This document shows positions 12,301 through 28,106 of a stretch of 32,000 bases of DNA, one piece after another. The notes under the pieces were generated by a model, which saw nothing but the letters and a program-made list of their open reading frames with translations, did no database searches and was not told the origin of the DNA. The translations under genes were made by a program, and so were the position numbers. Each line of letters begins with the position of its first letter. Position 1 is the first letter of the stretch. The stretch is from a bacterium (lineage in GTDB: Bacteria > Bacteroidota > Rhodothermia > Balneolales > Balneolaceae), in assembly GCA_024742815.1 (NCBI GenBank), contig JANSXX010000002.1, forward strand, positions 299,395-331,394. The letters run 5' to 3'.

Positions 12301-14184
12301 ATGGATACCATCGAACAAATCCCATTATCAACCAATATAAAATGTGGAAAGCATACCGACTTAGAAGAGGTGTTGAGCGTAGCTCCAAGTGTCACTTTGG
12401 CGCACAACTTAGAAGAGCTTGTTGATTTATCTGTTCCTTCCGGAGGATTAACCCATAATGTATGTTATGATTTACCTGATGGAACAAGATATTTAGAAGT
12501 AGAGGTAGCGAGAGTAAAAAATGGTATAGCAGCGAATTATACCGAATCATACATGAGAAGGAGAGACCCAAATTGTATGTTAATAGCAGACGACCTTCCT
12601 ACAGATAAGCCAAAATTTGAAGATAGATTCGATTATTCGTTCGATAGTTTACGCACCGAAACACTAGATTGGCTGAAAACACAGGATCTTGCTGTATTTT
12701 ATTTTAATGCAGGAAAGAAAGGAATGGGATACGATGCGATAGCAGTGATTCCAGCTAACGCGGGCTTTTTTGGGCTTGGGTTAGGTTTATTGCAAGGTAT
12801 CATCGACCCAGATGAATTACCGGAAGACTTTTCACCAGAAGCCGTTATCTATACCGCTCCAATTTTTCGCCACACTCATTTTGACGGAAAACAAATAGTG
12901 GTTCATAACCGAGTTCCCGGCAGATACGAAATGTTTAGCTACAACCTGTATCCTGGGCCTAGTGCAAAAAAGGGTGTTTATGGCATGCTTATTGGACAAG
13001 GTGAAAAAGAAGGTTGGGTTACAGCTCACTGTTCTGCAGTTCGAGCAGTTTCTCCATACGATAGCATTACAAATATCATGCACGAAGGTGCGAGTGGGGG
13101 AGGTAAAAGCGAAATGCTTCAACAACCTCACCGTCAAAGCGATGGCTCATTATTACTGGGCAAAAATATCGTAACTGGTGAGAAACGAACCTTAGAATTA
13201 CGTAGAACCTGCGATTTAGAACCTGTCACTGATGATATGGCGCTTTGCCACCCAAGTTTGCAAAAAAATGATGGTAAACTGTGGTTGGAAGACGCTGAGG
13301 AATCTTGGTTCGTTCGCGTTGATCATATCGATGAATATGGTACGGATATGATGTTAGAGAAGATCTCTGCAAAACCAGATCAACCATTATTATTTTTGAA
13401 TGTTGAAGCCGTTCCCGGCTCAAGAGCAATGATTTGGGAGCACAAAATGGATGCACCGGGTTTACCATGCCCAAATCCACGAGTTATAATTCCTCGAAAA
13501 TCAATGCCGGGCATATATTCTAATCCCATTGATGTTGATATCCGTAGTATTGGGTTAAGAACACCGCCAAGTACCGCCGAAAAGCCTAATTATGGTATCG
13601 TAGGATTGATGCATGTACTAAATCCATCTTTGGCTTGGTTATGGCGATTGGTTGCACCTCGTGGTCATGCAAATCCGAGCATTATTACCTCCGCTGGACT
13701 AAGTAGTGAAGGCGTAGGTAGTTACTGGCCATTTGCTACCGGTAAAAGAATTAATCAAGCAAATCTGTTACTCGAGCAAATCATTGATACTCCAAAAGTG
13801 AAGTACATACTTACTCCAAATCAATACATTGGAGCATGGAAAACAAGCTTTATGCCGCAGTGGATAAGTAGAGAATATCTTGCTCGAAAAGGTTCAGCTA
13901 ATTTCCCAGCAGAACAACTAAGTCCTTCAAGATGTAGTTTATTGGGGTATTCACTTAATTACATGAAAGTAGAAGGTATACAAATACCTAAGTGGATGCT
14001 TAAAGTGGAGTATCAGGAAGAATTAGGCAAAGAGGCTTATGATGTTGGAGCAAATATGTTACACGAGTTCTTCATTAAAACCCTAAGTAAATTTCAGGGC
14101 GATGGACTACATCCACTTGGCAAGCAAATCATAGAATGCTGTTTAGATAACGGTTCAACAGCTGATTACGAAGCTTTGCTATAA
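12301..14184 (+). CDS. DUF4914-like protein with an HprK/PEPCK-type P-loop
   Basis: 627 aa, soluble. It contains HEGASGGGKSEM, a G-x-S-G-x-GKSE Walker-A as in HPr kinase/PEP-carboxykinase-fold enzymes. The size (~630 aa) and FCB-group context match my recollection of the DUF4914 family. Not verified by search. Confidence 0.55.
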   Translation: MDTIEQIPLSTNIKCGKHTDLEEVLSVAPSVTLAHNLEELVDLSVPSGGLTHNVCYDLPDGTRYLEVEVARVKNGIAANYTESYMRRRDPNCMLIADDLPTDKPKFEDRFDYSFDSLRTETLDWLKTQDLAVFYFNAGKKGMGYDAIAVIPANAGFFGLGLGLLQGIIDPDELPEDFSPEAVIYTAPIFRHTHFDGKQIVVHNRVPGRYEMFSYNLYPGPSAKKGVYGMLIGQGEKEGWVTAHCSAVRAVSPYDSITNIMHEGASGGGKSEMLQQPHRQSDGSLLLGKNIVTGEKRTLELRRTCDLEPVTDDMALCHPSLQKNDGKLWLEDAEESWFVRVDHIDEYGTDMMLEKISAKPDQPLLFLNVEAVPGSRAMIWEHKMDAPGLPCPNPRVIIPRKSMPGIYSNPIDVDIRSIGLRTPPSTAEKPNYGIVGLMHVLNPSLAWLWRLVAPRGHANPSIITSAGLSSEGVGSYWPFATGKRINQANLLLEQIIDTPKVKYILTPNQYIGAWKTSFMPQWISREYLARKGSANFPAEQLSPSRCSLLGYSLNYMKVEGIQIPKWMLKVEYQEELGKEAYDVGANMLHEFFIKTLSKFQGDGLHPLGKQIIECCLDNGSTADYEALL

Positions 14185-14252: not shown

Positions 14253-16136
14253 TTAAGGAATATACTCTAAGTAAAAAATAATAGGTTCTATTGAAAAGCC
14301 TGAATTCAACAATCGATTGAAAATAGTTTGGGTTTCATTTCTATTAACCGATTGTCCCGTCATTACAGAATATCGACCACTAACGAGTTCTTCTACGCGG
14401 GTATTTATTCCTGTTCTTGATCGTACTTGTTGTGCTAGTTCATTGGCCTCTTGTCGATTACTCAGTTCGTCAACTTGAATTTGGTAGGCATATTTGTACG
14501 TAGCAGCTGTTTCCGGTTGGTGACGAATAAATAGATTTGAAGAAATTCCCATCTCCCTGAAAGTGCGTAATTGTTCTAGAACTACCTCTCGAGACTCGTA
14601 TGGTCCGGTAAGTACATTAAAAGTATCGGAAACTCGATTCATGTAAGCTTGTACACCGTATCGATCTAACAATTCGATGGTGAAATCTAAGCCATTAGCA
14701 CGGGTTTGAAATGCACCAAATTGAATGAGGTATTTTACAGGTTTCGGCCGCTGAATGGTATTGTTGTAACACTGATGAACAACACTTACACTTTTATCAT
14801 TAATTCTTGATGATAATTCATTTCGTAAGCTAACAACCTCTGTAAACGAGGAAGTAGGAGGTGTTCTAACCGAATATTCGTTGGTGTTATAGGTAAGTAT
14901 CACATCCGCTAAGTTTGATGATTCTATCGCATCAGCTCGTTGAAATGCTGTTTGTAAAGCAGAAAACTCACCAAGTTGCACCGAATACTGGCATCGAGCA
15001 TCCACTCGCAATAACGATGGCATGGCATTACTTGATGATGGAATTTCTGTAGCAGATGGTTCCGGCTCTGATTGCTCTACTGGTTCTAGTTCTTCTTCAG
15101 CTTGAGAAACAGACTCTTGTGTAACACTATCAGGATCGTTTTGAGGCTCAGCAGTTTCGGTAGCTTGTTGTCGATCTGAATCGGAATTAACATCGTCAGT
15201 TGCTGGTGTTTCTTCTTGCTGTTCAGCTGCTAACTGATTTCGGATTCGGTTTTCTTCCATCACCGTTAGTAAAGCCGGTTCTTCAGCTAAAACTACAACG
15301 TTTTCATTCGGATCGGGAGGAGGGAGCTCAGAAATACCAGGAATATCATTACTTAAACTTTCAGGAGTTCCTGATTCAGTTTCGCCAATAAACGATTCGT
15401 CATCAGTTTCCGGTTGTGTAAGAATTTCTTCTTTCAAATTATCAGATGAGTAATAAAGCCTTAATACCACTCGGCGATTTTTTTCTTTACTAGCCGCAAA
15501 AGGAAAACCTAAAGAATCATATTCAATTACCGGACGAGAATCTGCATAACCAGATGCTTTAAGTCGATTTGCGGGGATTCCAGCATCATTAAAATACTTA
15601 ACTACGTTTGCTGCTCTTGCTGTAGAAAGTTCCCAATTTGAGGGATAAGCTACGGATGAGATTGGAGTATTGTCGGTATGACCCTCAACATCTATTAAAA
15701 AATCGTTGTACTTAACCTGTTGCATAGCTATTAAAACGGTATTTAATAGCTGTTCGGAATTCGGATCTAACTGAGCTCGGCCCGGATCATAAAGGTCATC
15801 ACTTTTAAAACGAATTCTTAGATCATTTAAATCACGAATGATCTCCAGATTACCGGCTTCAATCTCCGGTTGAAGCAATTCGAATAATTCTCGTTCTATG
15901 GCTCCGATGGGAGTGGTTAAAAACTCAGTTTCATCTGCTAGTTTGCCAAAAATGGATGAAAGTGAAGAAAATTCGGACTTTGTAATTTGTGAAACAGAAA
16001 GCAGAATTATTAAAAACCCTAATACGATTGTAATGATATCAAGATAACTTACTTGCCAGCTCTCATCATCTTCTGATTCTTCATCCGGTAGTGGAAAAAG
16101 TGAATATTTAATTCTTATTGGTTTCTTTTTCTTCAC
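14253..16136 (-). CDS. MotB-like stator subunit: N-terminal TM with a conserved Asp, an OmpA-like peptidoglycan-binding domain, an acidic disordered linker and three C-terminal SPOR-like domains
   Basis: GTG start 9 nt after the MotA stop. SWQVSYLDIITIVLGFLIILL places an Asp (residue 33) at the mouth of the single TM, as in MotB D32. OmpA motif: VEGHTDNTPISS..YPSNWELSTARAANVVKYF...RLKASGYADSRPV...NRRVVL. Residues ~238-372 are E/D/S/P/Q-rich. Three beta-alpha-beta-beta-alpha-beta-like units start at YSVQLGEF, YLIQFGAFQTRANG and YAYQIQVDEL. Confidence 0.8.
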   Translation of the reverse strand: MKKKKPIRIKYSLFPLPDEESEDDESWQVSYLDIITIVLGFLIILLSVSQITKSEFSSLSSIFGKLADETEFLTTPIGAIERELFELLQPEIEAGNLEIIRDLNDLRIRFKSDDLYDPGRAQLDPNSEQLLNTVLIAMQQVKYNDFLIDVEGHTDNTPISSVAYPSNWELSTARAANVVKYFNDAGIPANRLKASGYADSRPVIEYDSLGFPFAASKEKNRRVVLRLYYSSDNLKEEILTQPETDDESFIGETESGTPESLSNDIPGISELPPPDPNENVVVLAEEPALLTVMEENRIRNQLAAEQQEETPATDDVNSDSDRQQATETAEPQNDPDSVTQESVSQAEEELEPVEQSEPEPSATEIPSSSNAMPSLLRVDARCQYSVQLGEFSALQTAFQRADAIESSNLADVILTYNTNEYSVRTPPTSSFTEVVSLRNELSSRINDKSVSVVHQCYNNTIQRPKPVKYLIQFGAFQTRANGLDFTIELLDRYGVQAYMNRVSDTFNVLTGPYESREVVLEQLRTFREMGISSNLFIRHQPETAATYKYAYQIQVDELSNRQEANELAQQVRSRTGINTRVEELVSGRYSVMTGQSVNRNETQTIFNRLLNSGFSIEPIIFYLEYIP

Positions 16137-16145
16137 AACAGCCGC

Positions 16146-16943
16146 TTAAATCATGTTTTTATTTCGGCGCATATGTGCTTGAAGCTTATCGTAAATTTGT
16201 AGCGAAGTTTTTTGCTCTTCGATTAGAATAATTCCCTCCAGGATCAATTTCTCTCTAAAATACCGTAGTGAAGCCACATTATTCATCTTTTTAGCCATTG
16301 GCGTGAAAATAAAATTACCAATCAGAATACCATATAATGTGGTCATTAAAGCAGCACCTAACCCACTCAATAACGACTCTACTTCACTAAATCCTGATAG
16401 GATTACGATCAGGCCAAAAAGGGTTCCTAACATCCCGAAAACAGGAGATGTCTTGCCCATACTAGCAATAATTTGATTCACCATTTGCTGGCGAGAGTAG
16501 TTTTCTTCAATATTGATCTCCCCAAGCTCACGAAGATCTTCGGTGTCATAATTGGTATCCAAAATCGAAAATAAATACCCCTCGAAACGATCAGCATATT
16601 CTTCGCTGAGCTGAGTAACTGCCGCGAATTTATTTTGCTTAATCATCTTTTGCCAGTCCATTACCCGCTGTATGTCTTCTTCTAACACCTCGTGGGTGAT
16701 GGTGCTATAAGAAAACAGTTTAGTGCTTTCAACGAGCGCCTTAATTACACTATTGAAAGGATAGCTAATAAATACACTGGCAGTTATTCCTCCGAAAACG
16801 ATGGCTAAACTTGGCAGATTTAAAAAAGCGAATCGAGAGGGAATTAAATCGTATTGCGTATACCCGGTTACCAGAAGTGCACCCCAAACCAAAATCAACA
16901 AAGAAATTAGAAAACATAGAATATTGAGTATGGATGTACGCAT
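16146..16943 (-). CDS. MotA/PomA-like stator proton-channel subunit
   Basis: 265 aa with a 4-TM MotA topology: TM1-TM2 at the N-terminus, a ~100-aa charged cytoplasmic loop, TM3-TM4, then a cytoplasmic tail. TM3 TSPVFGMLGTLFGLI and TM4 ALMTTLYGILIGNFIFTPMAKKM carry the conserved Pro residues of the MotA_ExbB channel core. Confidence 0.8.
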   Translation of the reverse strand: MRTSILNILCFLISLLILVWGALLVTGYTQYDLIPSRFAFLNLPSLAIVFGGITASVFISYPFNSVIKALVESTKLFSYSTITHEVLEEDIQRVMDWQKMIKQNKFAAVTQLSEEYADRFEGYLFSILDTNYDTEDLRELGEINIEENYSRQQMVNQIIASMGKTSPVFGMLGTLFGLIVILSGFSEVESLLSGLGAALMTTLYGILIGNFIFTPMAKKMNNVASLRYFREKLILEGIILIEEQKTSLQIYDKLQAHMRRNKNMI

Positions 16944-16950
16944 AGAGTTA

Positions 16951-17508
16951 TTAAAAGCTCTTTGTTAAATTTTCATCGATTAATCCATTATTCTGAAGTT
17001 GCTGAATAATGTAGGTGGAAGAAGGTATGGGAACAGAAGGGTCCATTTCAAGAGCTCTTCGCCAGTGACTCACAAATTCATTGATATATCCCAATCCAAG
17101 ATAAATACTACCACGTAAGGCTAACACATCAGCATTTTCTTTGATCAGTGCAGCGCGGTTGATCAGGAAGAGCGCATTTTCAAAATCGCCGGTATAAAAG
17201 TGCTGTTGAGCAAGTATATAGTAGTTTGTAAGGGTATTCGCTTGTGCTTGATATCTTGAATAGATCTCATCTTTATATAATTCGATGAGAGCTTCACGAA
17301 GTTCTTCCTCTTTAGCTTGCGCTTGCTCCAAACTATCTTGTATTGCCAGTTGAAGGGAATCTTCCGGCGAGATGGTGTCTTGTTCAGCAATCGGATCAGT
17401 GAACTGATTACTAGATGCGCAATGAATAAAGAGTACCGAAAGAATTAAAAAAATTACAAAAGCAGGTCTATGTTTCATTTTCACCTGTACTTTATTTGTC
17501 ATTCGCAT
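16951..17508 (-). CDS. Secreted/lipoprotein TPR-repeat protein
   Basis: Signal peptide with Cys (MKHRPAFVIFLILSVLFIHCASS). The start at ATG 17478 is preceded by AGGTGA and may be the real one. The C-terminal TPR-like helices are paralogous to the C-terminus of the 994-aa outer-membrane protein. Confidence 0.65.
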   Translation of the reverse strand: MRMTNKVQVKMKHRPAFVIFLILSVLFIHCASSNQFTDPIAEQDTISPEDSLQLAIQDSLEQAQAKEEELREALIELYKDEIYSRYQAQANTLTNYYILAQQHFYTGDFENALFLINRAALIKENADVLALRGSIYLGLGYINEFVSHWRRALEMDPSVPIPSSTYIIQQLQNNGLIDENLTKSF

Positions 17509-19345
17509 TCTTGCGGATAGAATTCATTAAGAGAGCCTTAGCATATTCGGTTTGGCGACCGCTCGTTCCTTGAAGCTCTTCAAGTTCCATGCGTAACAAA
17601 CGTTGTTCTCGCGTAGGTCGCGCAGATAAAATTCGATCCACAACTTGAGGAGGTAACCCAACAATGGCGTCTAGTAATGTTTCTGTATTAAGTGTTCGAA
17701 CGGCTTTTTTAATGATTTCATCACTTAACTCAGGTAAACGATCGATAGTAATAAACTGCTTTTCCAAGATTGCTCCAACTATCGAGCCAGTAGCTTTTAA
17801 CTCATCAATATAACGTTGTTGTTCGTGTACCGGAAGTCGTTCTAAAATAGGATAGAGGTGTTCAGCACCATATTGCTCGCTTCGTTCAGCTTCCACTAAA
17901 TCCATGGCTTTGTCGAAGAGTTCTGACGATATCTTTTGCTGCTGCTCGTTAGTTAAATTATTCAGCGATGCCATATGCAACATGATTTTAGCGGCAATTT
18001 CTTTATCTAATTTTTCGATCAGTAATGCAGCTTTATCATCCGGGATATACTGAAGTATAAAAGCACCGGAAAGGCTGTCTTCCGTTTCCAGTAATGTGAG
18101 AATATGTTTATCTGAAATGTGATCGAGGAATTTGAATAGTGAAAATTTGCTACGTTTTTTCTCAGATACGGTTTGTTTAGCACCTTGTTGAAGCATTCGA
18201 GCAAATTCTTCTACAATTTCTGCTCGTCGCTCTGGCGCTAATTCCTCAAGCTCCAATAAAGCATCGCTCAGGCTGTCGTAATCTTCAGGATGAAGTTCCT
18301 TTTTTAAAGTTCGTAGCAGATGTTTGTCGACAGCCACTAGATATTCAGCAGCTTTTTTAGCCCCGTTTTCTTCTTCACTTAACCAATACCTGAAAATAGT
18401 GGCAATCTCCTCAGGCTTAGTAAAAAATGCATTAACAATATCTTCTGTCGTCATGTCCTCATCACTTTGCTCAATATCACCCTTTACTTGCTCAGTGCTG
18501 GAAAAAGGTTGAGCCGACTGTTGTTGCGTGGCCATATCATTTTTAAGTGTATCCCGATAATCCCGAAGGGGAATTTGGGGCTGGGGCTTGTTCATCAATT
18601 TGTTAAACAAAAGTGTAAGCCCAAATAGCAGCATTAATGCCAATGCAGGAATATAGGTGTAGATGGAGTTGTAATCGGGCGCAGCAGGCTGTTGTACAAC
18701 AGTAGTAGCCGTAACAGGTTCGGGGGCCTCGGTATAATCTGGGATGGCTAATTGGGATATGGTGATTTCATCACCTCGAGCCTCGTTGATTTTTACTGCG
18801 ATTCCTGTAATAAATCGCATTAACTCAAGTTGAGCAGTAGTAACCGAAGTATCTGCATAAATATTAACGCTCATGTTAACGATACGCAGCGTTTTTATGG
18901 TATTTTCGTTTACAATAGTTTCAGGTTGCCGGTTACGGTTAGCAGGCTGACGAAGATTTTGTTCAGGCAAGAAGGGAAGGCCAGGCATGAATAGATTCTG
19001 CTCTTGTTGGCTCGATTCTACTACTTGATTACTGGTAGTACCTATCGTTTGATCGATCAGCTCAGCATTAATATTTACATCGATAAAAAATTTCTTTCGA
19101 TTGAAGTAATTTGAAAGAATTTGGATGATTTGGGAATCATACTGTTGTTCCAGATTGGCAACGCGTAGTTCAAGAGATTGAGAACTGTATGGATCAAAAG
19201 CCGTTTGAGCGCGAGTGTTGGTAGAGGCAAGGAAACAAGTTGTTAAAAATAGAAGAGCTAGTAATTTCACGCCAAAATTGGTTAAAATTTTGGCAAGCAT
19301 AGAGTCAAATATGTGACGTATTCTGTGCATTTTAATCTGATGCAC
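17492..19345 (-). CDS. Membrane-anchored mini-FliF::FliG fusion protein (FliF-like periplasmic ring-building region, TM helix, and a complete FliG N/M/C cytoplasmic region)
   Basis: The ORF opens at GTG 19345. ATG 19330 lies 1 nt after the upstream stop (TAAaATG) and is the likely start. Periplasmic part (nt ~18662-19210): IKTLRIVNMSVNIYAD...TTAQLELMRFITGIAVKINEARGDEITISQLAIP parallels the FliF end motif (..rlsVaVvv..lt.eq...i..lv..a.G....RGD.l.V...pF). A TM helix follows (IPALALMLLFGLTLLF). The cytoplasmic ~320 aa (nt ~17495-18448) align by eye with FliG. LQYIPDDKAALLIEKLDKEIAAKIMLHMASLNNLT corresponds to LSHLPPEKAAEVLSLLPEELRAEVLLRIATLESVS. FITIDRLPELSDEIIKKAVRTLNTETLLDAIVGLPPQVVDRILSARPTREQRLLRMELEELQG corresponds to FENLVDVDDRSIQRLLQEVDSESLLIALKGAEPPLREKFLRNMSQRAADILRDDLANRG. 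Confidence 0.7.
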   Translation of the reverse strand: MHQIKMHRIRHIFDSMLAKILTNFGVKLLALLFLTTCFLASTNTRAQTAFDPYSSQSLELRVANLEQQYDSQIIQILSNYFNRKKFFIDVNINAELIDQTIGTTSNQVVESSQQEQNLFMPGLPFLPEQNLRQPANRNRQPETIVNENTIKTLRIVNMSVNIYADTSVTTAQLELMRFITGIAVKINEARGDEITISQLAIPDYTEAPEPVTATTVVQQPAAPDYNSIYTYIPALALMLLFGLTLLFNKLMNKPQPQIPLRDYRDTLKNDMATQQQSAQPFSSTEQVKGDIEQSDEDMTTEDIVNAFFTKPEEIATIFRYWLSEEENGAKKAAEYLVAVDKHLLRTLKKELHPEDYDSLSDALLELEELAPERRAEIVEEFARMLQQGAKQTVSEKKRSKFSLFKFLDHISDKHILTLLETEDSLSGAFILQYIPDDKAALLIEKLDKEIAAKIMLHMASLNNLTNEQQQKISSELFDKAMDLVEAERSEQYGAEHLYPILERLPVHEQQRYIDELKATGSIVGAILEKQFITIDRLPELSDEIIKKAVRTLNTETLLDAIVGLPPQVVDRILSARPTREQRLLRMELEELQGTSGRQTEYAKALLMNSIRKNANDK

Positions 19346-22316
19346 GCCTATTCACCCTTTCTTCAAGTACTTCCATATCCGGAATTACAAGGTCGGGGTT
19401 AAATCGGAGTGCCTGTTCCCAATGTCGTTGCGCCTGATCGATGTTACCTTCAAAATAATAAAAACTTCCCTTTAAAGCGTGTGCTTGTGCAGTTTCAAAA
19501 AGTTCTAATGATTCGTTAACATAGCGGAAGGCTAAGTCTATGTTGTTAGAATAAAAGGCGTTTTGAGCTTTGATTATGAGCCGTAAAGCATTATCAACTT
19601 CTTTAAATACTTCTTGAGAATATTCTAATATTTCTGGCGACGATTTTATCTCGTCGGTAACCTGTGCAATAGTGAGCGCGGCAAGGCTGTCTTCTTGGGA
19701 TTGTTGTTGTACATCAAGAGGGTAGAGCTCGAAATTTAGTCCTTCTACAAAATCACCATCTCTAGTAGTTTCAACCTCAAAGTTTATAAGTTCAGGCTCG
19801 GATCTTGACTGAAGTATTGAAAGTTGAGAGGGATCAATTTCTAACCTGTAATCACCCGGGCGAATAGGATATTCATAAAAACTTCCATCAGAAAATGTTC
19901 TAAGTTCCTTTACCTCATTCTCTTTTAGATCAGTAAGAAGCACTTTAAGTCCTCCAATCCCTTGCGATAATCCACCTTCGTAAATTCTAGCAACATTTCC
20001 TTCCATTACGCCACTCATGTTGAATGGGATATCTATTAGTTTAAAACTATTAGGATCCGTAATTATCGAAAATTTATCTTCTTCAGGTACCAACATTGGG
20101 TTTTTAATTGACGCCTGATTTAGTTCAACGTTGTAACGAAAATATGAGTTTAATTGAGTGTAATACAGGATTCCATTTTTAGAAACAGATGAAGCACCGC
20201 TTCTACCTAGTCTCAAGTTTATATCATCAAGTAATTCATCTTCCGATTCTTCATAAACTCCATTAGTGTTATTGTCCACAAAAAACCGAACTGCAGTTGC
20301 AGACCTTCCAACCTGATTACGGCTTGTCCAGATAAAATTATTAAAGTTAGAATCATAACCGATAGACCCCCTAACTGTTTGGCTTGCGCTTGTATTTCCT
20401 CTAATGAAAGTTGATGTAGAATTTGATCTTACTTTACCGAAATCGATGACAAAATTGAGTCTAATCGTATTAAATTGTCCTTGAAAATTTCTACCAAAAG
20501 ATGCCTGAATTCTTCCTTGGTTAAAAACACTTCGAGAAACAAGAACTTCGCCTTGCTGAAATTCATTAGTTGATGGTAAAAAGCGAAATTGACTTCTTAT
20601 AAATGTACCCCTTATAAATTTTGGGATATTTGGGTTCCTCGAAAAGTTATAGGTTATGGCAGATTCTACTAATCCTGAACCGGAACTGTTAAAAATATTG
20701 TAGGAGTCAATAATTCTGTCGGTATATCCTAATCTAAAATTAATTCTACTAATTTTTGCACTGACATCAGTTCTAATGGTACTTATACTTACCCCTTCAC
20801 GTACTCTTGTGAAATTGGAGTATCTCAATCCAAAAGGTTGATTGAAGATTTTTATAGGGAAGAAAACATTACCAATAAATTGGTAGTCATTATTGGAGCT
20901 ATTGAAAAAATTAGATTCCCCGGTGAAATTTGTAAAATCAAAATTTAAGCTTGCAGAATTTGGATAAACAGCATTTACTGAAGAACGTAAATATCCGTCG
21001 GTTACACCTTCAAGTGTTAAAATGTAATTTCGTGCAATTCTGCTGGAAAGGGTTGCAGTGTAAAAGGGAATATTCTTGCCAATTTCTGTCGAGTAATATT
21101 CCATACCAACTTTCGAGCTTAACCAGCGATTTATCCCATAGCTAACGTTAGCCTGCAGTGTTTTTTCTCTTTCTAATTTACCGATTACTCTGTTATCTAA
21201 AACCCCAGCATTAATACGATAATCAAACTCACCTTGTGGTACGAAATTAAACGGGATTTGCTGTCGATTCCTTTGTTGAATTACTTGTCCTGTTGGCCCG
21301 TAAATTCTTATGTCTAGTTGGGTTGTTCCATAATATTGTGGAACTAAAAATCGATAATTTCCGAATTCATCGGCTTGGCTAAAATCAATTAATGCATTAT
21401 CTAGATATAGTTCGATTTCAGACTGTGGTATAGTTGTGCCTTGTAGCTCAAATTCATCAAAAAGTCGCCGAGGTTCAATTGGTTCGTTCGAGATTCTAAT
21501 CCCCGTATAACTGTTCATAAAAACTCCATCTGTATTTGATTGCCCAACAGTTATAGAACTCAACCACGAGTTGTTTCGGATAAGAGTTTTCCAGCGTAAG
21601 TTATTGCTTTCAAATACAGAACTTTCTGAGCTAAAATTTCCAAATAAACTACCTTGTAAATCTCCCCCTAATAGTTGTAATCCTAAAGAGCTACTGTAAT
21701 TAAAGGAGCTTAATTCGCTACTTAAATTAGTTCCAACACTGTAATCAAGAAATCCCCCGTCAACTATTTTTCTCTCCAAACCATACCCAATGGGATAATA
21801 GCTAACATCCCTTCGATTGGTGTTTGCAAGCTTCAATTTTGCTCTTCGTAAAAATTGTTGGATAATTGGAATTTCAACTTCTGTTTCTAATCGGAGCGTT
21901 AGATTGTTAAAGTCAACAGAGAAGTCTAAACCAAATATTTCAGAAAAGTATCTGGGAGGTAAGTATGTATCCAGATCTGTAAGTATGTAGTCATCGGTAG
22001 TGATTGAATAAGATTGATCACCAAAAACGATTGTTTGCCTTCTTAAATCAATTGAGTAAGGGGTTTGTTCTAGGGCAAACTTACCACTAATAACAATGTC
22101 GTTTACATTTGCCTCAATATGAAGTAGTTCAAATAATTCCTTTACAGGTAAATTAAATTCTTCACCATCATAATAAGCTATCACATAAGAATTAATTACT
22201 CCACGATGGCTAAATTGGAGATATACTTCGAAATCATCTTCACTTTGAGCGTAAACAGAACTACTAAATATTAGTAGCAAAAAAAAAAAGAGAAAAAAGC
22301 CTAGGCATTTTCTCAA
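19332..22316 (-). CDS. Large outer-membrane protein: usher-like beta-barrel with CarboxypepD_reg-like beta-sandwich inserts and a C-terminal TPR module
   Basis: TTG start overlaps the chaperone-like stop (TTGA). Signal peptide MRKCLGFFLFFFLLLIFSSSVYAQ. Long runs of alternating amphipathic beta-strand sequence rich in Y/F/N/S/G/R. Beta-sandwich-like segments GNYRFLVPQYYGTTQLDIRIYGPTG and DGSFYEYPIRPGDYRLEIDP. A TPR tail at the C-terminus. The usher role is inferred from position (after the chaperone-like gene, next to the pilin-like genes) and size, not from recognised motifs. Confidence 0.45.
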   Translation of the reverse strand: MRKCLGFFLFFFLLLIFSSSVYAQSEDDFEVYLQFSHRGVINSYVIAYYDGEEFNLPVKELFELLHIEANVNDIVISGKFALEQTPYSIDLRRQTIVFGDQSYSITTDDYILTDLDTYLPPRYFSEIFGLDFSVDFNNLTLRLETEVEIPIIQQFLRRAKLKLANTNRRDVSYYPIGYGLERKIVDGGFLDYSVGTNLSSELSSFNYSSSLGLQLLGGDLQGSLFGNFSSESSVFESNNLRWKTLIRNNSWLSSITVGQSNTDGVFMNSYTGIRISNEPIEPRRLFDEFELQGTTIPQSEIELYLDNALIDFSQADEFGNYRFLVPQYYGTTQLDIRIYGPTGQVIQQRNRQQIPFNFVPQGEFDYRINAGVLDNRVIGKLEREKTLQANVSYGINRWLSSKVGMEYYSTEIGKNIPFYTATLSSRIARNYILTLEGVTDGYLRSSVNAVYPNSASLNFDFTNFTGESNFFNSSNNDYQFIGNVFFPIKIFNQPFGLRYSNFTRVREGVSISTIRTDVSAKISRINFRLGYTDRIIDSYNIFNSSGSGLVESAITYNFSRNPNIPKFIRGTFIRSQFRFLPSTNEFQQGEVLVSRSVFNQGRIQASFGRNFQGQFNTIRLNFVIDFGKVRSNSTSTFIRGNTSASQTVRGSIGYDSNFNNFIWTSRNQVGRSATAVRFFVDNNTNGVYEESEDELLDDINLRLGRSGASSVSKNGILYYTQLNSYFRYNVELNQASIKNPMLVPEEDKFSIITDPNSFKLIDIPFNMSGVMEGNVARIYEGGLSQGIGGLKVLLTDLKENEVKELRTFSDGSFYEYPIRPGDYRLEIDPSQLSILQSRSEPELINFEVETTRDGDFVEGLNFELYPLDVQQQSQEDSLAALTIAQVTDEIKSSPEILEYSQEVFKEVDNALRLIIKAQNAFYSNNIDLAFRYVNESLELFETAQAHALKGSFYYFEGNIDQAQRHWEQALRFNPDLVIPDMEVLEERVNRRASD
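22279..22289 (-). repeat. Homopolymeric T11 tract (A11 on + strand) inside the signal-peptide coding region of the usher-like gene
   Basis: Counted directly: CTC TTT TTT TTT TTG encodes LFFFL of MRKCLGFFLFFFLLL. A further A6 run lies 3 nt away. Confidence 0.9.
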
Positions 22317-23179
22317 CGTTTAATAAATGTAGTAGTTTCTGTAACATTTGGCATTTGAACTAGATCAGAATCTGGAATATCACTTCGTCGACTCTCAAAT
22401 GTAGTTCTGATTAGATATTCACCATTCGGAATATCGTCGATTTCGAATTCTTGACGGAAAATGCCGTCAAAATATAATGATGTTGATAAGAAGCCACGTC
22501 GTACTTCCTGTCCGTTACTATCAATAATAGAAGTTGTAATAGAGCCTAAAAATGGGCTGTTACCGGTTCGTAAATGATCAATAAGAACAATAAGCTTTCC
22601 TGACTCAGAATCATATTCAGTTCTAATTTCTTCTATATCTATACCAGTTGCAACATCGCCTTTTTTATAAAATATACCTGTCACCTGCTCTACTCTAATA
22701 CCCACTCTTGCAGCAACTGTATTTTCGGTTTGTAATTCTATCGGCGGTGTTTCAGGTGTGGAAGCAGTCTTAATCCTTGCCCAGTAGGTCCCATCCTCAA
22801 GTTCATTGGGAGGATTCAGTCGAAGTCTGATTACTTGTCTTTGCCCCGGAGCGAGTGTAAAATTTCTGGGAAAAGCACGAATGTACTCGGCAATCGAGTG
22901 TTTCTCTCTCATCTGCTGATCATCCTGTACAATGGTTCTATATCCTTGCTCGTCACTTTCGGTGTAAGCGAAAGCAAAATCTATAGATATTTCTTGAGTC
23001 TCATTTGAGTTGTTGATCACCATGTAGGTCCCAAATCGAGCATTTTCAGCCACGAATAAGTTAGTGGGGGCAATGGTTACTTGTGCAGTTGCGATCGAGA
23101 TAGATGATATTATAGATAGTATCGCTGTAAATGTAATAATAGACTTCATCGCGTAGATATAATTTGCCATCGAGATCAA
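22313..23179 (-). CDS. PapD-like periplasmic pilus chaperone candidate (two Ig-like domains)
   Basis: The ORF opens at TTG 23179. Alternative ATG starts lie at 23170 and 23149 (MKSIITFTAILSIISSISIATAQ is a good signal peptide). VTIAPTNLFV...GTYMVINNS and IRAFPRNFTLAPGQRQVIRLRL..P.ELEDGTYWARIKTASTP mirror the PapD domain-1 pattern (v.l..tR.if......l.v.N ... atPP..rl.Pg..q.vRl....lP.DrEslf..n...iP). Confidence 0.5.
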   Translation of the reverse strand: MISMANYIYAMKSIITFTAILSIISSISIATAQVTIAPTNLFVAENARFGTYMVINNSNETQEISIDFAFAYTESDEQGYRTIVQDDQQMREKHSIAEYIRAFPRNFTLAPGQRQVIRLRLNPPNELEDGTYWARIKTASTPETPPIELQTENTVAARVGIRVEQVTGIFYKKGDVATGIDIEEIRTEYDSESGKLIVLIDHLRTGNSPFLGSITTSIIDSNGQEVRRGFLSTSLYFDGIFRQEFEIDDIPNGEYLIRTTFESRRSDIPDSDLVQMPNVTETTTFIKR

Positions 23180-23246: not shown

Positions 23247-23278
23247 AAAAAAAAAGTCTCACAGCTGTGAGACTTTTC
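23247..23278 (-). terminator. Strong intrinsic terminator (or attenuator) after the major pilin-like gene
   Basis: Perfect palindrome AGTCTCAC-AGCT-GTGAGACT (23255-23274). On the minus strand it is followed by nine U (A9 at 23247-23255 on + strand). It lies 24 nt downstream of the stop at 23298. Confidence 0.7.
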
Positions 23279-23297: not shown

Positions 23298-23849
23298 TTA
23301 TTGATAGTTAACAGTAACGTTTAGGTCACCAGATGCACCAGCTGTTCCAGAATCAGAAGTATAGGTACCGGATGCTTGTGAAGAAAGAGTACCTAGATTA
23401 CCACCGATGTATACAAATAAGTCGCCAGAACCAGAGGTTTCAGTAGCTGCAGTCGCAGTATTTTTTGTAATGTCAGTTGAAGATGCAATGGCATCTGTAC
23501 TGTTACCAGAGAAGTCTGGAGTGAAAGTCATAGAATTAGTTCCATTACTTAAGGTAACTGTCGCTTGATCCCAATCAATTAATAATTGAGTAGAGTTAGC
23601 TGCACTAATAGTTAGTTTACCAAAAGTTGCTCCAGCACCTACATCTGCTGTACTAGCACCTTGTGGATCAAGTACCGGGCTACCAGTATCCTGAATGTTA
23701 CCAAAACTAACATCAGTATTTTTAGTTAATGTAATGTCAGCAAGTACAACGGCACCAATGTTAACATCAACGTTTTCCTGTGCAAAAGCACCAGTTGCGA
23801 ATAGAGCAACGATTGCGAAAGCGGCAAATATATTTTTTAGATTTTTCAT
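23298..23849 (-). CDS. DUF4402/SCPU-like secreted pilin-type subunit; candidate major subunit
   Basis: Signal peptide MKNLKNIFAAFAIVALFATGAFAQ. N-terminal strand with alternating hydrophobics, NVDVNIGAVVLADITL. VSFGNI motif. Thr/Ser/Ala/Gly-rich body. C-terminal LFVYIGGNLG...ASGTY....GDLNVTVNYQ with a penultimate Tyr. It has its own flanking intergenic regions and terminator. Confidence 0.6.
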   Translation of the reverse strand: MKNLKNIFAAFAIVALFATGAFAQENVDVNIGAVVLADITLTKNTDVSFGNIQDTGSPVLDPQGASTADVGAGATFGKLTISAANSTQLLIDWDQATVTLSNGTNSMTFTPDFSGNSTDAIASSTDITKNTATAATETSGSGDLFVYIGGNLGTLSSQASGTYTSDSGTAGASGDLNVTVNYQ

Positions 23850-23949
23850 AGAAGTATTGATTTAGTGGCTTTTAAAATTTCTGTTAAAAAATTATTGATT
23901 GTTCAATCTGATTCCTAGTTAAAAACTCTTAATTAAAATTGTCTAAATA

Positions 23950-24474
23950 TTAATCGTACTCAATTAGCAAGAGAATCTCACCGCTATATTCTCCTTCATT
24001 TATGTTACCTACATTAATTGAACCATAAATGTAAAGATAGATCTCTTCCCAAAATTCTTGATTATTGTTCAATGCTCGAGTTGCTCGCTCCGAAACAGGT
24101 AAGTAGCCAGAATTTCCAACCAAAAGTGTCGAATTGTTGATGTTTCTGTTACCTGAATTGTTATATGAAGCATTTATGGTTAATGGAATATTATCCTCGA
24201 TCGCGGGATTTTCATGAGTTAAAAACTCTGGGTATTCTATACTGACATAAATATTTTGAGTGTAATAAGCGCGGATATTAAAAATACCCATATTTAAATC
24301 ACCTAATTCTACTTCAGAGACACCGGAATTAATTACTAGTTGACCAAAGCTCAAATTTTGTTCAACAGTGGCTGACAACTCAGGTTCTACTCTTATCTGT
24401 AGATTAATGAATTGAGCAATTGCATTGTTATTTAGCAATAAAAAAAACCATATAAATAAGCAGTGCCTAATCAT
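23950..24474 (-). CDS. DUF4402/SCPU-like secreted pilin-type subunit (paralog)
   Basis: Signal peptide, LSFGQL motif, and C-terminal IYLYIYGSINVGNINEGEYSGEILLLIEYD. Its start overlaps the upstream stop by 8 nt (ATGATTAG). Confidence 0.55.
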   Translation of the reverse strand: MIRHCLFIWFFLLLNNNAIAQFINLQIRVEPELSATVEQNLSFGQLVINSGVSEVELGDLNMGIFNIRAYYTQNIYVSIEYPEFLTHENPAIEDNIPLTINASYNNSGNRNINNSTLLVGNSGYLPVSERATRALNNNQEFWEEIYLYIYGSINVGNINEGEYSGEILLLIEYD

Positions 24475-25051
24475 AGTTTATTGTCACATTCACTGTTCCC
24501 GTGTAACTTCCAGCGTCTACATTTCCAACATTAACTGATCCGTAGATGTAAATGTAGGCAGTTTCATTAAAAAGAGATGGGTTGAATCCTTCATAAACAG
24601 GAGTTGGTGGAGGACCAGGAGGAACATTACCTCTATATTTAATTGGGAATTGCTCACTTGCAGTAGTTCCGGAGACTAGAAAATCTGATACTTGGGAAAT
24701 ACTCATAATACCTCTGTTGGCATAGGATGCTTGCAGAGTGTAAGGAATCCGACAACTTGGATTAGTTTGACAAGAAAGATTCCCGTTTAACAAAAGATAT
24801 TGATCGGCTGTTAGATCAACTATAATATCGAGATATTTGACGCCTTCAATAGTCAGTACTTTCGCGTTGTCTATTGTTACTGTTGAAACTCCGTCATTTT
24901 GGATTAAAGTGCCAAAATCAAGTTCAGATCCAGGGCTTAGTTCAGATAGCGTAACAGAATAACTACTACTAAAACTTCCAAAGTCTATTTCTTGTGCATG
25001 TAAAGTTACACTGAGAAATGATAGTGATAGTATGAAAGCTAATTTCGACAT
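24467..25051 (-). CDS. DUF4402/SCPU-like secreted pilin-type subunit (paralog, with a Pro-rich insert)
   Basis: Signal peptide MSKLAFILSLSFLSVTLHAQ, LDFGTL motif, insert NVPPGPPPTPV, and C-terminal AYIYIYGSVNVGNVDAGSYTGTVNVTINYD. Confidence 0.55.
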   Translation of the reverse strand: MSKLAFILSLSFLSVTLHAQEIDFGSFSSSYSVTLSELSPGSELDFGTLIQNDGVSTVTIDNAKVLTIEGVKYLDIIVDLTADQYLLLNGNLSCQTNPSCRIPYTLQASYANRGIMSISQVSDFLVSGTTASEQFPIKYRGNVPPGPPPTPVYEGFNPSLFNETAYIYIYGSVNVGNVDAGSYTGTVNVTINYD

Positions 25052-25057
25052 TCAATT

Positions 25058-25549
25058 CTATATGTAATCAATTTCAATGGTGAAGTCTCCTTCGTAATTA
25101 CCCGGTTGAGCATTGGTTAGGTTAACTTCTCCACCTACCCAAATGTAGTATGTCCCTTGATTATTGAATCGCAAATTTCTGTTTTCGTAATCTATTAATT
25201 GCGAACTTGTTTGATCCTCTATACTGTTACCACTTAGTTCATATCTGAAGTTTAAAAATCCTTCACCTTCAATTCGGTTTAACTGACGATCTAATTCATA
25301 TTCAAGTCTAAATTCTGCATCAGGAGTACCATTTGCTATCATGAATCCGGCATTCAAGTCATTAACAGGATTCACGTAAATAACTTCTTGACCTGGTTGG
25401 CTATTACCAAAAGTCATCGTATTCACGGTGATTAATTCAATAGACTGAATAACGTTTGCCTGAATACTTACTTCAGCTGATAATTGATTACTCTCCTGAG
25501 AAAAAACCAGACATGGAAATAACAATAAAAGTAGAAATATATAACGCAT
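25058..25549 (-). CDS. DUF4402/SCPU-like secreted pilin-type subunit (paralog)
   Basis: Signal peptide MRYIFLLLLLFPCLVFSQ, MTFGNS motif, and C-terminal TYYIWVGGEVNLTNAQPGNYEGDFTIEIDYI. Confidence 0.55.
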   Translation of the reverse strand: MRYIFLLLLLFPCLVFSQESNQLSAEVSIQANVIQSIELITVNTMTFGNSQPGQEVIYVNPVNDLNAGFMIANGTPDAEFRLEYELDRQLNRIEGEGFLNFRYELSGNSIEDQTSSQLIDYENRNLRFNNQGTYYIWVGGEVNLTNAQPGNYEGDFTIEIDYI

Positions 25550-26039: not shown

Positions 26040-26040
26040 G

Positions 26041-27513: not shown

Positions 27514-27522
27514 AACTTCTCC

Positions 27523-28104: not shown

Positions 28105-28106
28105 GG

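Follow-up and report, generated by a model that had tools for sequence, protein, structure and literature searches.

A natural FliF–FliG fusion protein encoded beside MotA/MotB and an outer-membrane usher homologue in Balneolaceae

A single gene in the window (the whole 32,000-nucleotide stretch of Balneolaceae DNA analysed here) encodes a natural joining of a reduced FliF, represented by its last third, to a full three-domain FliG. From the N-terminus, the protein contains a signal peptide whose cleavage is inferred, one FliF RBM3/β-collar-like domain, one transmembrane (TM) helix, a segment resembling the FliF C-terminus, and the complete FliG (N, M and C domains). On balance, we lean towards the view that the fusion is the rotor of a non-flagellar, ion-driven motor that descends from the MS-ring and C-ring top of the flagellum and energises an outer-membrane fibre machine. 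In this reading, ring formation, rotation, coupling to the usher and the output are all inferred by analogy with FliF, FliG and MotAB. If it is true, the locus encodes an undescribed non-flagellar ion-driven motor with a stripped-down flagellar rotor, placed beside pilus-assembly genes. No description of this fusion-motor system was found in the literature searched.

Domain structure of the fusion protein

The fusion gene and the elements of its product, in 602-aa numbering, are listed below with the evidence for each.

17492–19345, minus strand: FliF(RBM3)–FliG fusion gene (ORF, Pfam, full-length homologues, AlphaFold model, Foldseek)
19208–19300, minus strand: predicted signal peptide, residues 1–31 (hydrophobic segment and alignment; cleavage inferred)
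18716–19207, minus strand: periplasmic FliF RBM3/β-collar-like domain, residues 32–195 (AlphaFold secondary structure, Foldseek, Pfam YscJ_FliF_C)
18956–18988, minus strand: loop motif MPGLPFLPEQN at the tip of a long β-hairpin (family alignment)
18593–18664, minus strand: single TM helix, residues 213–236 (hydropathy; model helix 212–236; alignment with Salmonella FliF TM2)
18365–18448, minus strand: two short helices, residues 285–312 (invariant columns; TIGR00206; Salmonella FliF alignment)
18089–18364, minus strand: FliG N-terminal domain (Pfam FliG_N; 5tdy_B)
17894–18109, minus strand: FliG middle domain (Pfam FliG_M; column counts)
17501–17767, minus strand: FliG C-terminal domain, with the torque helix at 17567–17620 (Pfam FliG_C; 8ucs_H superposition)

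The gene is one unbroken ORF that reads as 617 aa from a GTG start at 19345. Close homologues start at the equivalent of an ATG at 19300 (602 aa) or later (592 aa), and this ATG is likely the true start rather than the GTG. The AlphaFold model of the protein has a pLDDT of 74.9 and is of moderate confidence (pLDDT 74–75; pTM 0.35 for the full chain). When the full model was compared with the PDB by Foldseek, all 31 matches at E ≤ 1e-3 were FliG or FliF RBM3.

The periplasmic domain adopts an α, long β, loop, long β, α, β topology in the AlphaFold secondary structure. The top 18 PDB matches to its model are all FliF RBM3/collar (S-ring) structures (Foldseek E 1.3e-7 to 2.4e-6, probability 1.00), followed by SpoIIIAG and PrgK (E 2e-3 and 8e-3). 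An RBM3 with a β-collar, which is one criterion for FliF, is satisfied by fold. At the sequence level, the Pfam profile YscJ_FliF_C (PF08345) scores 15.8 bits on the whole protein and 19.3 bits on the isolated domain, below its cut-off of 23.8; the sub-threshold match recurs in 17 of 21 family members, and a KSB1 homologue clears the cut-off (30.7 bits, E 4.9e-7). The identity of the FliF part is shown by fold and rests mainly on it, the sequence support being weak here and significant in the KSB1 homologue. No Pfam match to RBM1/RBM2 (PF01514, SctJ-like) was obtained in the fusion, whose ∼165 periplasmic residues make up a single RBM.

In the loop at the tip of the hairpin, P106, G107 and P109 are invariant, and L108, F110, L111, P112 and N115 are nearly so. 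The LPGLP core is retained across the distant superfamily. A role of this loop in docking periplasmic partners is proposed, by inference only.

Taken from the fusion protein alone, the sequence evidence for the FliF part falls below every curated cut-off. The NCBIfam fliF equivalog TIGR00206 scores 20.4 bits against a cut-off of 129.75; its match (E 2e-4) extends to profile position 554 of 555.

The N-terminal hydrophobic segment ends in a conserved (A/S)-Q, with a small residue at −1 and then Q in almost every aligned member. The segment is likely a signal peptide cut before the near-invariant Q32 and not a first TM helix, although cleavage is inferred rather than shown. Only one further hydrophobic segment, residues 213–236, is evident from hydropathy, and it carries basic residues at its C-terminal (cytoplasmic) side. 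Because the N-terminal segment is most likely removed, the mature protein would have one TM helix versus two in FliF, and the FliF trait of two TM helices flanking the periplasmic region is not met.

Residues 404–559 of Salmonella FliF align collinearly with the fusion, albeit weakly (E 0.85). The RGD of the fusion is matched to the Salmonella RGD directly before TM2, the TM helix to TM2 itself, and the tryptophan of the helix pair preceding FliG_N to the tryptophan near the FliF C-terminus. F292 and W306 of this helix pair are invariant in the family alignment. The resemblance of residues 285–312 to the FliG-binding helix at the FliF C-terminus is supported by weak alignments only, namely those to TIGR00206 and Salmonella FliF.

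All three armadillo-like FliG domains (N, M and C) are present. FliG_N (38.9 bits, cut-off 25), FliG_M (34.7 bits) and FliG_C (38.5 bits) all exceed the Pfam gathering cut-offs, a profile of the fusion family finds solved FliG at E 1.7e-24, and the Foldseek alignment to full-length FliG spans 313–323 columns. The FliG_N region matches 5tdy_B at E 0.008, and FliG_C of the model superposes at 2.2 Å on the MotAB-bound FliG_C of 8ucs_H. The fusion does not reach the NCBIfam FliG equivalog TIGR00207 (54.4 bits versus a cut-off of 226.7). Weak MgtE_N matches overlap the FliG region.

The torque helix is RPTREQRLLRMELEELQG. Two of its residues, the Arg and one Glu, fall opposite the Arg and Glu conserved in the torque helix of T. 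maritima FliG; in our numbering, they correspond to E. coli R281 and D289. The R281 equivalent is Arg in 86/88 family members and 92/101 distant members; the D289 equivalent is Glu in 86/88 of the family and in only 30/101 distant members, and the position of D288 is hydrophobic (Met or Leu) in the fusion family. The charge pattern is kept only in part. The EHPQR FliM-binding motif of FliG_M is degenerate, only its Glu being kept (86/88) while the His, Pro and Gln positions vary; the column counts excluded the motif's distant Arg.

The original prediction, made from sequence alone, had proposed a single-polypeptide FliF::FliG fusion, and this held by ORF, Pfam, Foldseek and recurrence. Also upheld were the resemblance to FliG over all three domains, the RGD before the last TM helix and the position of the torque helix. 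The periplasmic sequence likened to the end of FliF had been quoted correctly, and the likeness held by fold, with Pfam sub-threshold in the fusion itself. The claimed torque-helix charge features held in part, with only some of the pattern conserved and the FliM-binding motif gone. The N-terminal hydrophobic segment is refined to a probable signal peptide, followed by a single TM helix, and the contrast drawn with separate flagellar proteins and engineered fusions is refined by a Chlamydiaceae precedent of different domain content (PMC4768692; see below). The profile, structure, topology and orthologue checks that had been suggested support the identity with FliG and FliF RBM3, recurrence and one TM helix.

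Distribution, selection and gene neighbourhood

The full-length architecture occurs in 47 species-representative genomes and in ∼155 clusters at 50% identity, and extends to KSB1 and unassigned lineages. An assembly or frameshift artefact joining neighbouring fliF and fliG, which the original prediction had listed as a possible refutation, has nothing in its favour beyond a priori possibility. It is all but excluded, being refuted by this recurrence and by the unbroken architecture of 91 close full-length homologues from many independent assemblies, complete chromosomes included.

The genes surrounding the fusion are as follows.

14253–16136, minus strand: MotB stator subunit (Pfam MotB_plug, OmpA, SPOR twice)
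16146–16943, minus strand: MotA stator subunit, flagellar-type (Pfam MotA_ExbB; NCBIfam; PDB match)
16951–17508, minus strand: TPR lipoprotein, likely start 17478 (TPR matches; lipobox)
19332–22316, minus strand: outer-membrane usher homologue, 994 aa, with an added C-terminal TPR module (hhalign)
22313–23179, minus strand: periplasmic chaperone-like protein, 288 aa (signal peptide; weak Ig-like matches)
23298–25549, minus strand: four small secreted DUF4402/SCPU-like pilin-like proteins, at 25058–25549, 24467–25051, 23950–24474 and 23298–23849 (Pfam, alignment)
25644–31793, minus strand: accessory upstream genes (Pfam; sequences)

MotA is the most conserved gene of the cluster (66–98% identity). 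Its best NCBIfam matches are MotP, MotA and PomA, it matches C. sporogenes MotA in the PDB (E 1.2e-22), and its TM3/TM4 core and both prolines are invariant. MotB contains a plug, a TM helix with a conserved Asp, an OmpA-like peptidoglycan-binding domain, an acidic linker and two SPOR domains; a W-x-x-S-Y-x-D motif is retained in all variants, and the channel Asp is conserved. Flagellar-type motA and motB lie directly downstream of the fusion gene in every FliG-bearing locus with enough flank. Among the relatives examined, MotAB adjoins whenever FliG is present and is missing when FliG is missing. Since the presence of one tracks that of the other, FliG and MotAB can be argued to function together. 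A dedicated rotor–stator pairing of the fusion with MotA/MotB rests on gene adjacency, physical interaction being inferred. Two-component or CheR genes come after MotB in some loci.

In our reading of a pairwise alignment, the MotA loop residues aligned with E. coli R90 and E98 are uncharged.

A Zorya (ZorAB) defence system was considered and rejected. In PADLOC, the sole match was of MotB to ZorB models, attributable to general homology among MotB proteins, and MotA and the other genes gave none.

The TPR lipoprotein accompanies the fusion in nearly all relatives examined, and all Balneolaceae orthologues (16/16), as well as type-B relatives, keep its lipobox Cys. Two loci (L052 and L054) have no separate TPR gene and only the C-terminal TPR of the usher. 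Fusion clusters are of two kinds. Type A, as here, contains the remote usher homologue together with chaperone-like and pilin-like genes; in type B, a ∼370-aa protein of unknown function replaces the usher set.

The 994-aa protein meets the criterion of an outer-membrane usher as a remote homologue. By hhalign, its family aligns with five E. coli ushers over 512 columns covering the barrel and plug (Prob 95.3%, E 2.1e-8). The Pfam Usher profile remains sub-threshold on the family (19 bits versus a cut-off of 27.1 in one member). Distant fusion genes, too, are flanked by full-length homologues of the 994-aa protein (E 1e-105 to 1e-165), and the chaperone-like gene is conserved beside the usher homologue in distant loci. 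Evidence for the 288-aa protein itself is slighter: hhalign against PapD-like chaperones gave only Prob 39.5% and E 3e-4, over the N-terminal domain alone, and no PDB match and no Pfam match beyond the weak Ig-like ones was found.

Among the four small secreted proteins, DUF4402 is above the Pfam cut-off for that at 24467–25051 and sub-threshold for two others; SCPU reaches only E 0.073. The protein at 23950–24474 has no Pfam match, yet shares 31% identity with that at 24467–25051. No solved homologue of these proteins was found. Their genes are collinear in all Balneolaceae loci and in L054. The proteins are pilin-like by sequence, and their polymerisation by donor-strand exchange as pilin subunits is inferred. 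The accessory genes encode three proteins with type-IV-minor-pilin-like N-termini (one with DUF4900), a 131-aa secreted protein and a 997-aa invasin-D3/T9SS-CTD surface protein. They occur in a subset of loci only, the T9SS-CTD protein in most, and whether they are part of the machine is uncertain.

The nearby part of the window is free of genes for flagellar export, rod, hook, filament or FliM/FliN, and no fliM/fliN is found in related loci either. Because the neighbours are an usher homologue, chaperone-like and pilin-like genes and a TPR lipoprotein, with no flagellar gene, the fusion likely belongs to a non-flagellar machine. This negative covers the locus and not the rest of the genome. 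The original prediction had missed this context.

Alternatively, the fusion could serve as the rotor of a true, if atypical, flagellum, with the remaining flagellar genes encoded in other parts of the genome. Balneola vulgaris is described as motile with flagella (PMC5167729), some Balneolaceae (Aliifodinibius) possess a flagellar gene set, and the genome outside the locus was not inspected. Against this, the fusion lacks both RBM1/RBM2, where an export gate would sit, and the FliM-binding motif, and its TIGR fliG and fliF scores are far under the equivalog cut-offs. The cluster is also carried by Gracilimonas tropica DSM 19535 (locus L037), and a KEGG survey reported no flagellar-assembly genes in that strain or in Balneola (PMC9909488); B. 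vulgaris is absent from the 47 fusion carriers found. We regard a genuine flagellum as very unlikely.

A decaying remnant of a lost flagellum could be suggested by the same survey, which found an incomplete flagellar pathway in Aliifodinibius and in its new strain and explained it by gradual loss (PMC9909488). However, the fusion gene is under strong purifying selection. Its dN/dS is 0.075 overall, with 0.02 for the RBM domain, 0 for FliG_N, 0.05 for FliG_M and 0.12 for FliG_C, and more distant pairs show saturated dS and low dN. Gene order with the non-flagellar partners is collinear in all Balneolaceae loci, and the architecture recurs beyond them in KSB1 and unassigned lineages. These data already contradict decay, which is highly improbable.

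A proposed ion-driven machine and alternative readings

In the model that we favour, the RBM3-like domains would assemble into a periplasmic ring with a β-barrel collar, as in FliF RBM3, and this ring would hold a 1:1 ring of FliG domains beneath the inner membrane. Stators of the MotA5B2 type, tied to peptidoglycan through the OmpA-like and SPOR domains of MotB, would conduct H+ or Na+ via the conserved MotB Asp and push the FliG_C torque helix via its conserved Arg and Glu. From the collar tip, the MPGLPFLP loop may then hand torque or ring movement on to the TPR lipoprotein and to the usher, with its TPR tail, in the outer membrane, and the transmitted force would energise assembly, movement or rotation of a fibre of DUF4402 subunits. 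No CheY-type reversal is expected, because there is no FliM/FliN switch. The idea of a stripped-down rotor in the original prediction is supported, and fits the dedicated MotA/MotB that follow the fusion gene.

Several observations count against the rotor reading. In some relatives, the presumed rotor begins with a LysM domain, which, if it binds peptidoglycan, would block free rotation. Other relatives have the usher homologue, a LysM-RBM-TM protein without FliG and the TPR lipoprotein, with no MotAB, which means that a motor is not needed for the envelope complex to exist. The partial charge pattern of the torque helix and the uncharged MotA loop positions also count against it.

A non-rotating force transducer is a possible alternative. 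Here, the FliG ring and MotAB would act akin to ExbBD-TonB or TolQR-TolA, and limited strokes or conformational changes from ion flow would pass via the RBM ring and TPR proteins to gate or pull the usher. LysM on some fusions and the peptidoglycan anchors of MotB would tie both partners to the wall, the motor-less variants exist, and every other non-flagellar relative of MotAB known so far is held to power a process at the outer membrane (see also PMC12505986). Against it, similarity places the stator in the flagellar clade, and its partner is a full FliG with the conserved torque-helix Arg, a pairing whose only known output is rotation.

Less plausible is a static scaffold or sensor, in which the RBM ring would serve as a base for the usher complex at the inner membrane, the FliG/MgtE_N-like domains would be regulatory or ion-sensing, and MotAB would act elsewhere. 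The weak MgtE_N matches, the FliG-less ring protein and the two-component or CheR genes found after MotB could be taken in its favour. It is unlikely, given that MotAB is present with FliG and absent without it.

Comparison with known systems

The rotor reading draws on the flagellar FliF and FliG rotor with MotAB. The fusion shares with it the RBM3/β-collar fold, the RGD before the TM helix, the Trp-containing helix region before FliG_N, all three FliG domains, the torque-helix Arg and Glu, and flagellar-type MotA/MotB with the channel Asp. In the flagellum, FliF and FliG are separate; here they are one polypeptide without RBM1/RBM2, a predicted cleavable signal peptide replaces TM1, and EHPQR is lost. 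The gene is surrounded by usher, chaperone-like, pilin-like and TPR lipoprotein genes in place of FliM/FliN, export, rod, hook and filament genes.

Natural joining of FliF and FliG in a single chain has a partial precedent in Chlamydiaceae, bacteria not thought to be flagellated, in which a shortened FliF is joined to FliG-like sequence (Bergeron, 2016; PMC4768692). That protein of ∼330 aa has two TM helices, an RBM2-like and a second RBM, no SpoIIIAG-like domain (RBM3) and a FliG_M-like region only. A fusion of the Chlamydiaceae type is rejected here, the present protein having 602–617 aa, one RBM3-like domain, one TM helix, FliG N-M-C and adjacent motA and motB. In the engineered or spontaneous fusions of Salmonella and Vibrio (e.g. 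PDB 8z4d; Francis et al., 1992; Thomas et al., 2001, as cited in PMC4768692), as here, the C-terminus of FliF is joined covalently and 1:1 to the N-terminus of FliG, and a rotor can still work with such a fusion. They contain full-length FliF in a complete flagellum, whereas the present fusion is natural, RBM3-truncated and in a non-flagellar context.

SpoIIIAG and SctJ/PrgK share the RBM fold, and a ring channel is also formed in SpoIIIAG, by β structure inserted between strands 1 and 2. Their structural matches are far weaker (E 2e-3 and 8e-3 versus 1e-7 for FliF RBM3), and they have no FliG fusion and no stator. GldLM/T9SS gliding, ExbBD-TonB, TolQR, AglRQS and ZorAB share an inner-membrane, ion-driven unit of the MotAB family encoded with envelope-spanning and outer-membrane partners. 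These 5:2 motors use divergent stator families and no FliG-type rotor ring, whereas the stator here resembles flagellar MotA/PomA, its MotA without a ZorA match in PADLOC.

The chaperone-usher pathways (FimD/PapC; archaic SCPU/Csu) share the order pilin-like, chaperone-like, usher. The subunits here are DUF4402/weakly SCPU-like, and the 994-aa protein is homologous to ushers over the barrel and plug. Known chaperone-usher pathways require no inner-membrane energy source. In contrast, the usher homologue here carries a further TPR at its C-terminus and is accompanied throughout by an inner-membrane RBM-ring protein, in nearly all relatives examined by a TPR lipoprotein, and usually by FliG and MotAB as well.

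Architecture and ancestry of the fusion protein

The fusion gene lies within a run of same-strand genes, in which the following features are relevant here.

14253–16136 (−): MotB
16146–16943 (−): MotA
16951–17508 (−): TPR lipoprotein
17492–19345 (−): fusion protein
19332–22316 (−): usher homologue, 994 aa
22313–23179 (−): chaperone-like secreted protein, 288 aa
23298–25549 (−): DUF4402 set

The fusion ORF is uninterrupted and encodes 617 aa counted from a GTG. Near-identical homologues are called from an ATG at 19300 (602 aa) or later (592 aa), and residue positions in this work follow the 602-aa numbering. With the GTG start of the original prediction, the ORF and the end of the usher gene have 14 nt in common (19332–19345), and the homologue calls favour ATG 19300 or a later codon. 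The probable start of the TPR gene is likewise 17478, not 17508.

Hydropathy analysis locates two hydrophobic segments, at residues 1–27 and 212–237. In an alignment of 34 full-length homologues, a small residue closes the first segment and the next position is a nearly invariant Gln, as at signal-peptidase I sites. The N-terminal segment is accordingly most plausibly a signal peptide; it is probably cleaved, an inference made from sequence. Past the second segment the sequence becomes basic, which places the remainder of the protein in the cytoplasm. The N-terminal hydrophobic segment of the original prediction is thus present, but its topology is corrected: it is not the first TM helix of FliF.

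Close homologues of the fusion number 91, nearly all 580–630 aa long and from many independent assemblies. A one-genome-per-species scan recovered 47 loci, 43 of which are titled Balneolaceae, Balneolales or a genus thereof and one of which comes from a KSB1 MAG; the cultured strains Gracilimonas tropica DSM 19535 and Balneola sp. EhC07 are among the carriers. A profile of the periplasmic domain only retrieved 155 representatives of 50%-identity clusters (most 580–750 aa), and among ten distant representatives sampled, eight span 625–807 aa and all eight carry FliG domains. Comparison with the closest orthologue gives an overall dN/dS of 0.075 (RBM 0.02, FliG_N 0, FliG_M 0.05, FliG_C 0.12, linker 0.32); pairs that are further apart show saturated dS and a dN of only 0.08–0.23. 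The fusion is neither an artefact nor a relic. The predicted joining of FliF and FliG in one polypeptide is real, and its interpretation is supported, with corrections to topology and to precedent.

All three FliG domains score above the Pfam gathering cut-offs (FliG_N 38.9, FliG_M 34.7 and FliG_C 38.5 bits). The family profile matches solved FliG structures, including T. maritima FliG MC at E 1.7e-24. An AlphaFold model of the fusion (pLDDT 74.9) has PDB matches at E≤1e-3 that are all FliG or FliF RBM3; its alignment to full-length FliG extends over 313–323 columns, and its C-terminal domain superposes on MotAB-bound FliG_C (8ucs_H) at 2.2 Å. The torque helix was correctly placed in the original prediction, at nt 17567–17620; its conserved Arg is R564.

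Torque-helix residues in 88 close and 101 distant relatives (E. coli numbering)
R281-equivalent: Arg in 86/88 of the close family; Arg in 92/101 distant relatives
D289-equivalent: Glu in 86/88 of the close family; Glu in 30/101 distant relatives
D288-equivalent: hydrophobic in the close family; mostly Ser, Glu or Asp in distant relatives

Residue counts in the same relatives show that only the Glu remains of the FliM-binding EHPQR motif, and the NCBIfam fliG equivalog is not reached (54 against a cut-off of 227). The domain matches, the degenerate EHPQR and the low equivalog score together identify the FliG part as a true FliG homologue, yet not an orthodox flagellar FliG.

Sequence evidence for FliF within the fusion protein alone is weak. 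YscJ_FliF_C scores 15.8–19.3 bits, below the Pfam cut-off of 23.8, and TIGR00206 matches at E 2e-4, the match ending at profile position 554/555. The periplasmic-domain-only profile has no significant match among PDB sequences, and FliF appears in the PDB profile search only at E 0.12–0.85, once the TM helix and linker are included. Because these PDB sequence searches are weak or null, the assignment rests on the fold, on the sub-threshold YscJ_FliF_C match being repeated in 17 of 21 family members, and on a distant KSB1 homologue that exceeds the cut-off (30.7 bits, E 4.9e-7). The modelled periplasmic domain, ordered α, long β, loop, long β, α, β, has the predicted form of a ring-building motif whose hairpin is long. 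FliF RBM3/S-ring structures take the first 18 places among its PDB matches (E 1.3e-7 to 2.4e-6, probability 1.00), ahead of SpoIIIAG at 2e-3 and PrgK at 8e-3. Alignment to Salmonella FliF 404–559 is weak (E 0.85) but collinear, spanning the RGD, TM2 and a W motif near the FliF C-terminus, the last of which pairs with the invariant W306 directly before FliG_N. Consistency, fold and collinearity thus make it likely that the protein resembles FliF from RBM3 through its last residue, joined head-to-tail to whole FliG. The product expected if adjacent fliF and fliG fused and RBM1 and RBM2 were lost matches the protein seen.

Stator, usher-like and flanking genes

Three same-strand genes, separated by gaps of a few bases, follow the fusion and encode the TPR protein, MotA and MotB. 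The lipobox Cys of the TPR protein is kept in 16/16 orthologues. MotA best matches flagellar MotP, MotA and PomA (C. sporogenes MotA at E 1.2e-22), and its TM3/TM4 core, including both prolines, is invariant. MotB contains a plug, an OmpA-like domain and two SPOR domains, and the channel Asp is present in all MotB variants. By our reading of a pairwise alignment, the MotA loop residues opposite E. coli R90 and E98 are uncharged, which counts against free rotation of the presumed rotor. The main rival reading is a Ton/Tol-like stroke mechanism in place of free rotation, and the moderate confidence of the model likewise weighs against free rotation.

In MotB, a long, acidic stretch of low complexity lies between the OmpA-like domain and the two SPOR domains, which are absent from distant MotB partners. 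Denuded septal glycan is the ligand of SPOR domains, a hint of possible localisation to the septum or the new pole. A defence-system reading was rejected: PADLOC matched only MotB, to ZorB models.

Immediately upstream of the fusion, the 994-aa protein is a remote fimbrial usher homologue. Profile–profile comparison (hhalign) with five E. coli ushers aligned 512 columns spanning barrel and plug, at Prob 95.3% and E 2.1e-8; the homology came to light only by such comparison. The 288-aa protein matches PapD-like chaperones at Prob 39.5%, which is suggestive only, and four small secreted proteins upstream are DUF4402 or weakly SCPU-like. PDB profile searches with the 994-aa, 288-aa and DUF4402 families returned TPR matches only. 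Gene order is collinear across all Balneolaceae loci. No flagellar genes were found in the 32-kb window, the rest of the genome being outside the search; the loci of relatives that were compared were 21 kb long.

Several further features were observed within the cluster and around it. An additional TPR module at the C-terminus of the usher homologue is similar to the separate TPR lipoprotein. The DUF4402 gene at 23298–23849 is Gly/Ser/Thr-rich, and the hairpin directly after it resembles attenuators behind major pilin genes.

23251–23278 (−): strong terminator-like hairpin (12-bp stem and T run) between this DUF4402 gene and the chaperone-like gene
26041–28526 (−): three proteins (139, 193 and 490 aa) with N-terminal hydrophobic helices like those of type IV minor pilins/pseudopilins, the 490-aa one with DUF4900; restricted to some of the Balneolaceae loci
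28800–31793 (−): 997-aa surface protein combining invasin D3 with a C-terminal sorting domain for type IX secretion; conserved in most Balneolaceae loci, at their 5' end
12301–14184 (+): protein with a very strong DUF4914 match (981 bits), its gene convergent with motB; unrelated neighbour
1526–1912 (+): MerC-like protein; unrelated neighbour

The 997-aa protein may be an adhesin of the system. The cluster is flanked by the housekeeping genes alaS and pyruvate dehydrogenase E1/E2, syntenic across Balneolaceae.

Locus types in the wider family

Distant loci fall into two types. In type A (L052, L054 and L055), the fusion, MotA and MotB are found together with small subunits, one or two chaperone-like genes and an usher homologue that is conserved along its full length (E 1e-105 to 1e-165). 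Type B (L050 from KSB1, L051 and L053) contains the fusion, a conserved ~370-aa protein, the TPR lipoprotein, MotA and MotB. The ~370-aa protein has no similarity to the usher family. Its C-terminal residue is aromatic in two of three cases; a terminal aromatic residue is frequent in outer-membrane barrels.

MotAB is present at every locus with enough flank whose ring protein bears FliG. Two further loci from one lineage (L056:534–5080 and L057:3–4615) encode the usher homologue, a 322-aa LysM–RBM–TM protein that terminates directly past the TM helix, and the TPR lipoprotein, without FliG and without MotA/MotB. FliG and MotAB are thus gained or lost together, and this co-occurrence, drawn from comparison of loci, is the strongest comparative argument that they act jointly.

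In the relatives' fusion proteins P0107 and P0139 (L052:5844–8267), a LysM domain precedes the RBM domain at the N-terminus. Free rotation fits poorly with a peptidoglycan-binding LysM on the presumed rotor, a further point for the stroke mechanism. A C-terminal TPR on FliG in the 754-aa P0112 (L055:2287–4551) was rejected as read-through into the lipoprotein gene; a lipoprotein signal peptide and lipobox lie in frame after FliG_C, indicating two genes called as one.

Proposed working and comparison with known systems

The rotary reading starts from established features, namely domain composition, topology signals, conservation of channel and torque-helix residues, obligatory gene linkage and usher homology; its steps are drawn by analogy with FliF, FliG and MotAB. 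The RBM3-like domain would assemble as a ring with a β collar, matched on the cytoplasmic face by a FliG ring that peptidoglycan-anchored stators would turn. The TPR modules and the usher would receive the motion through the invariant hairpin-tip loop MPGLPFLP. With FliM/FliN absent and EHPQR lost, chemotactic switching would not be expected of such a motor.

A bolder reading, for which the evidence falls slightly short of the balance, is an unrecognised class of surface machine, widespread in Balneolaceae and present in KSB1 and further uncultured lineages, in which a FliF/FliG ring of flagellar origin, with MotAB, would mechanically drive a chaperone–usher-type fibre (in type B, another outer-membrane partner). 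On this reading the flagellar rotary motor would have been put to use a second time, independently, and might turn or actively extrude a pilus. Since cultured carriers exist, the question is directly testable. FliG and MotAB are regarded as the torque-generating core of the flagellum, and to our knowledge a working FliG rotor has not been demonstrated outside it. If true, this reading would demonstrate a portable flagellar rotor–stator pair without export gate, rod or switch, and the first chaperone–usher-like pathway tied to an inner-membrane energy source. The fusion also offers structural and biophysical work a natural minimal rotor, with 1:1 FliF:FliG and without FliM/FliN. It bears on the evolution of the flagellar motor and on the open question of rotor-protein roles in non-motile species.

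In a genomic study of Balneolaceae, the flagellar pathway, incomplete in some genera, was taken to be undergoing gradual loss there, and no flagellar-assembly genes were reported for Balneola or G. tropica (PMC9909488); Aliifodinibius, by contrast, has a fuller set. The literature searched holds no description of the fusion–stator–usher system, only the Chlamydia precedent and general remarks; most subscription journals were not covered, and absence is not proof. That precedent is a natural FliF–FliG fusion in Chlamydiaceae of ~330 aa with two TM helices (PMC4768692), which differs in having an RBM2-like and a second RBM, only a FliG_M-like region and no RBM3. The original prediction, which cited engineered fusions only, is corrected accordingly; engineered full-length FliF–FliG fusions do exist (8z4d). 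Of greater weight is the setting: a rotor–stator module of flagellar origin inside a chaperone–usher-like fibre locus.
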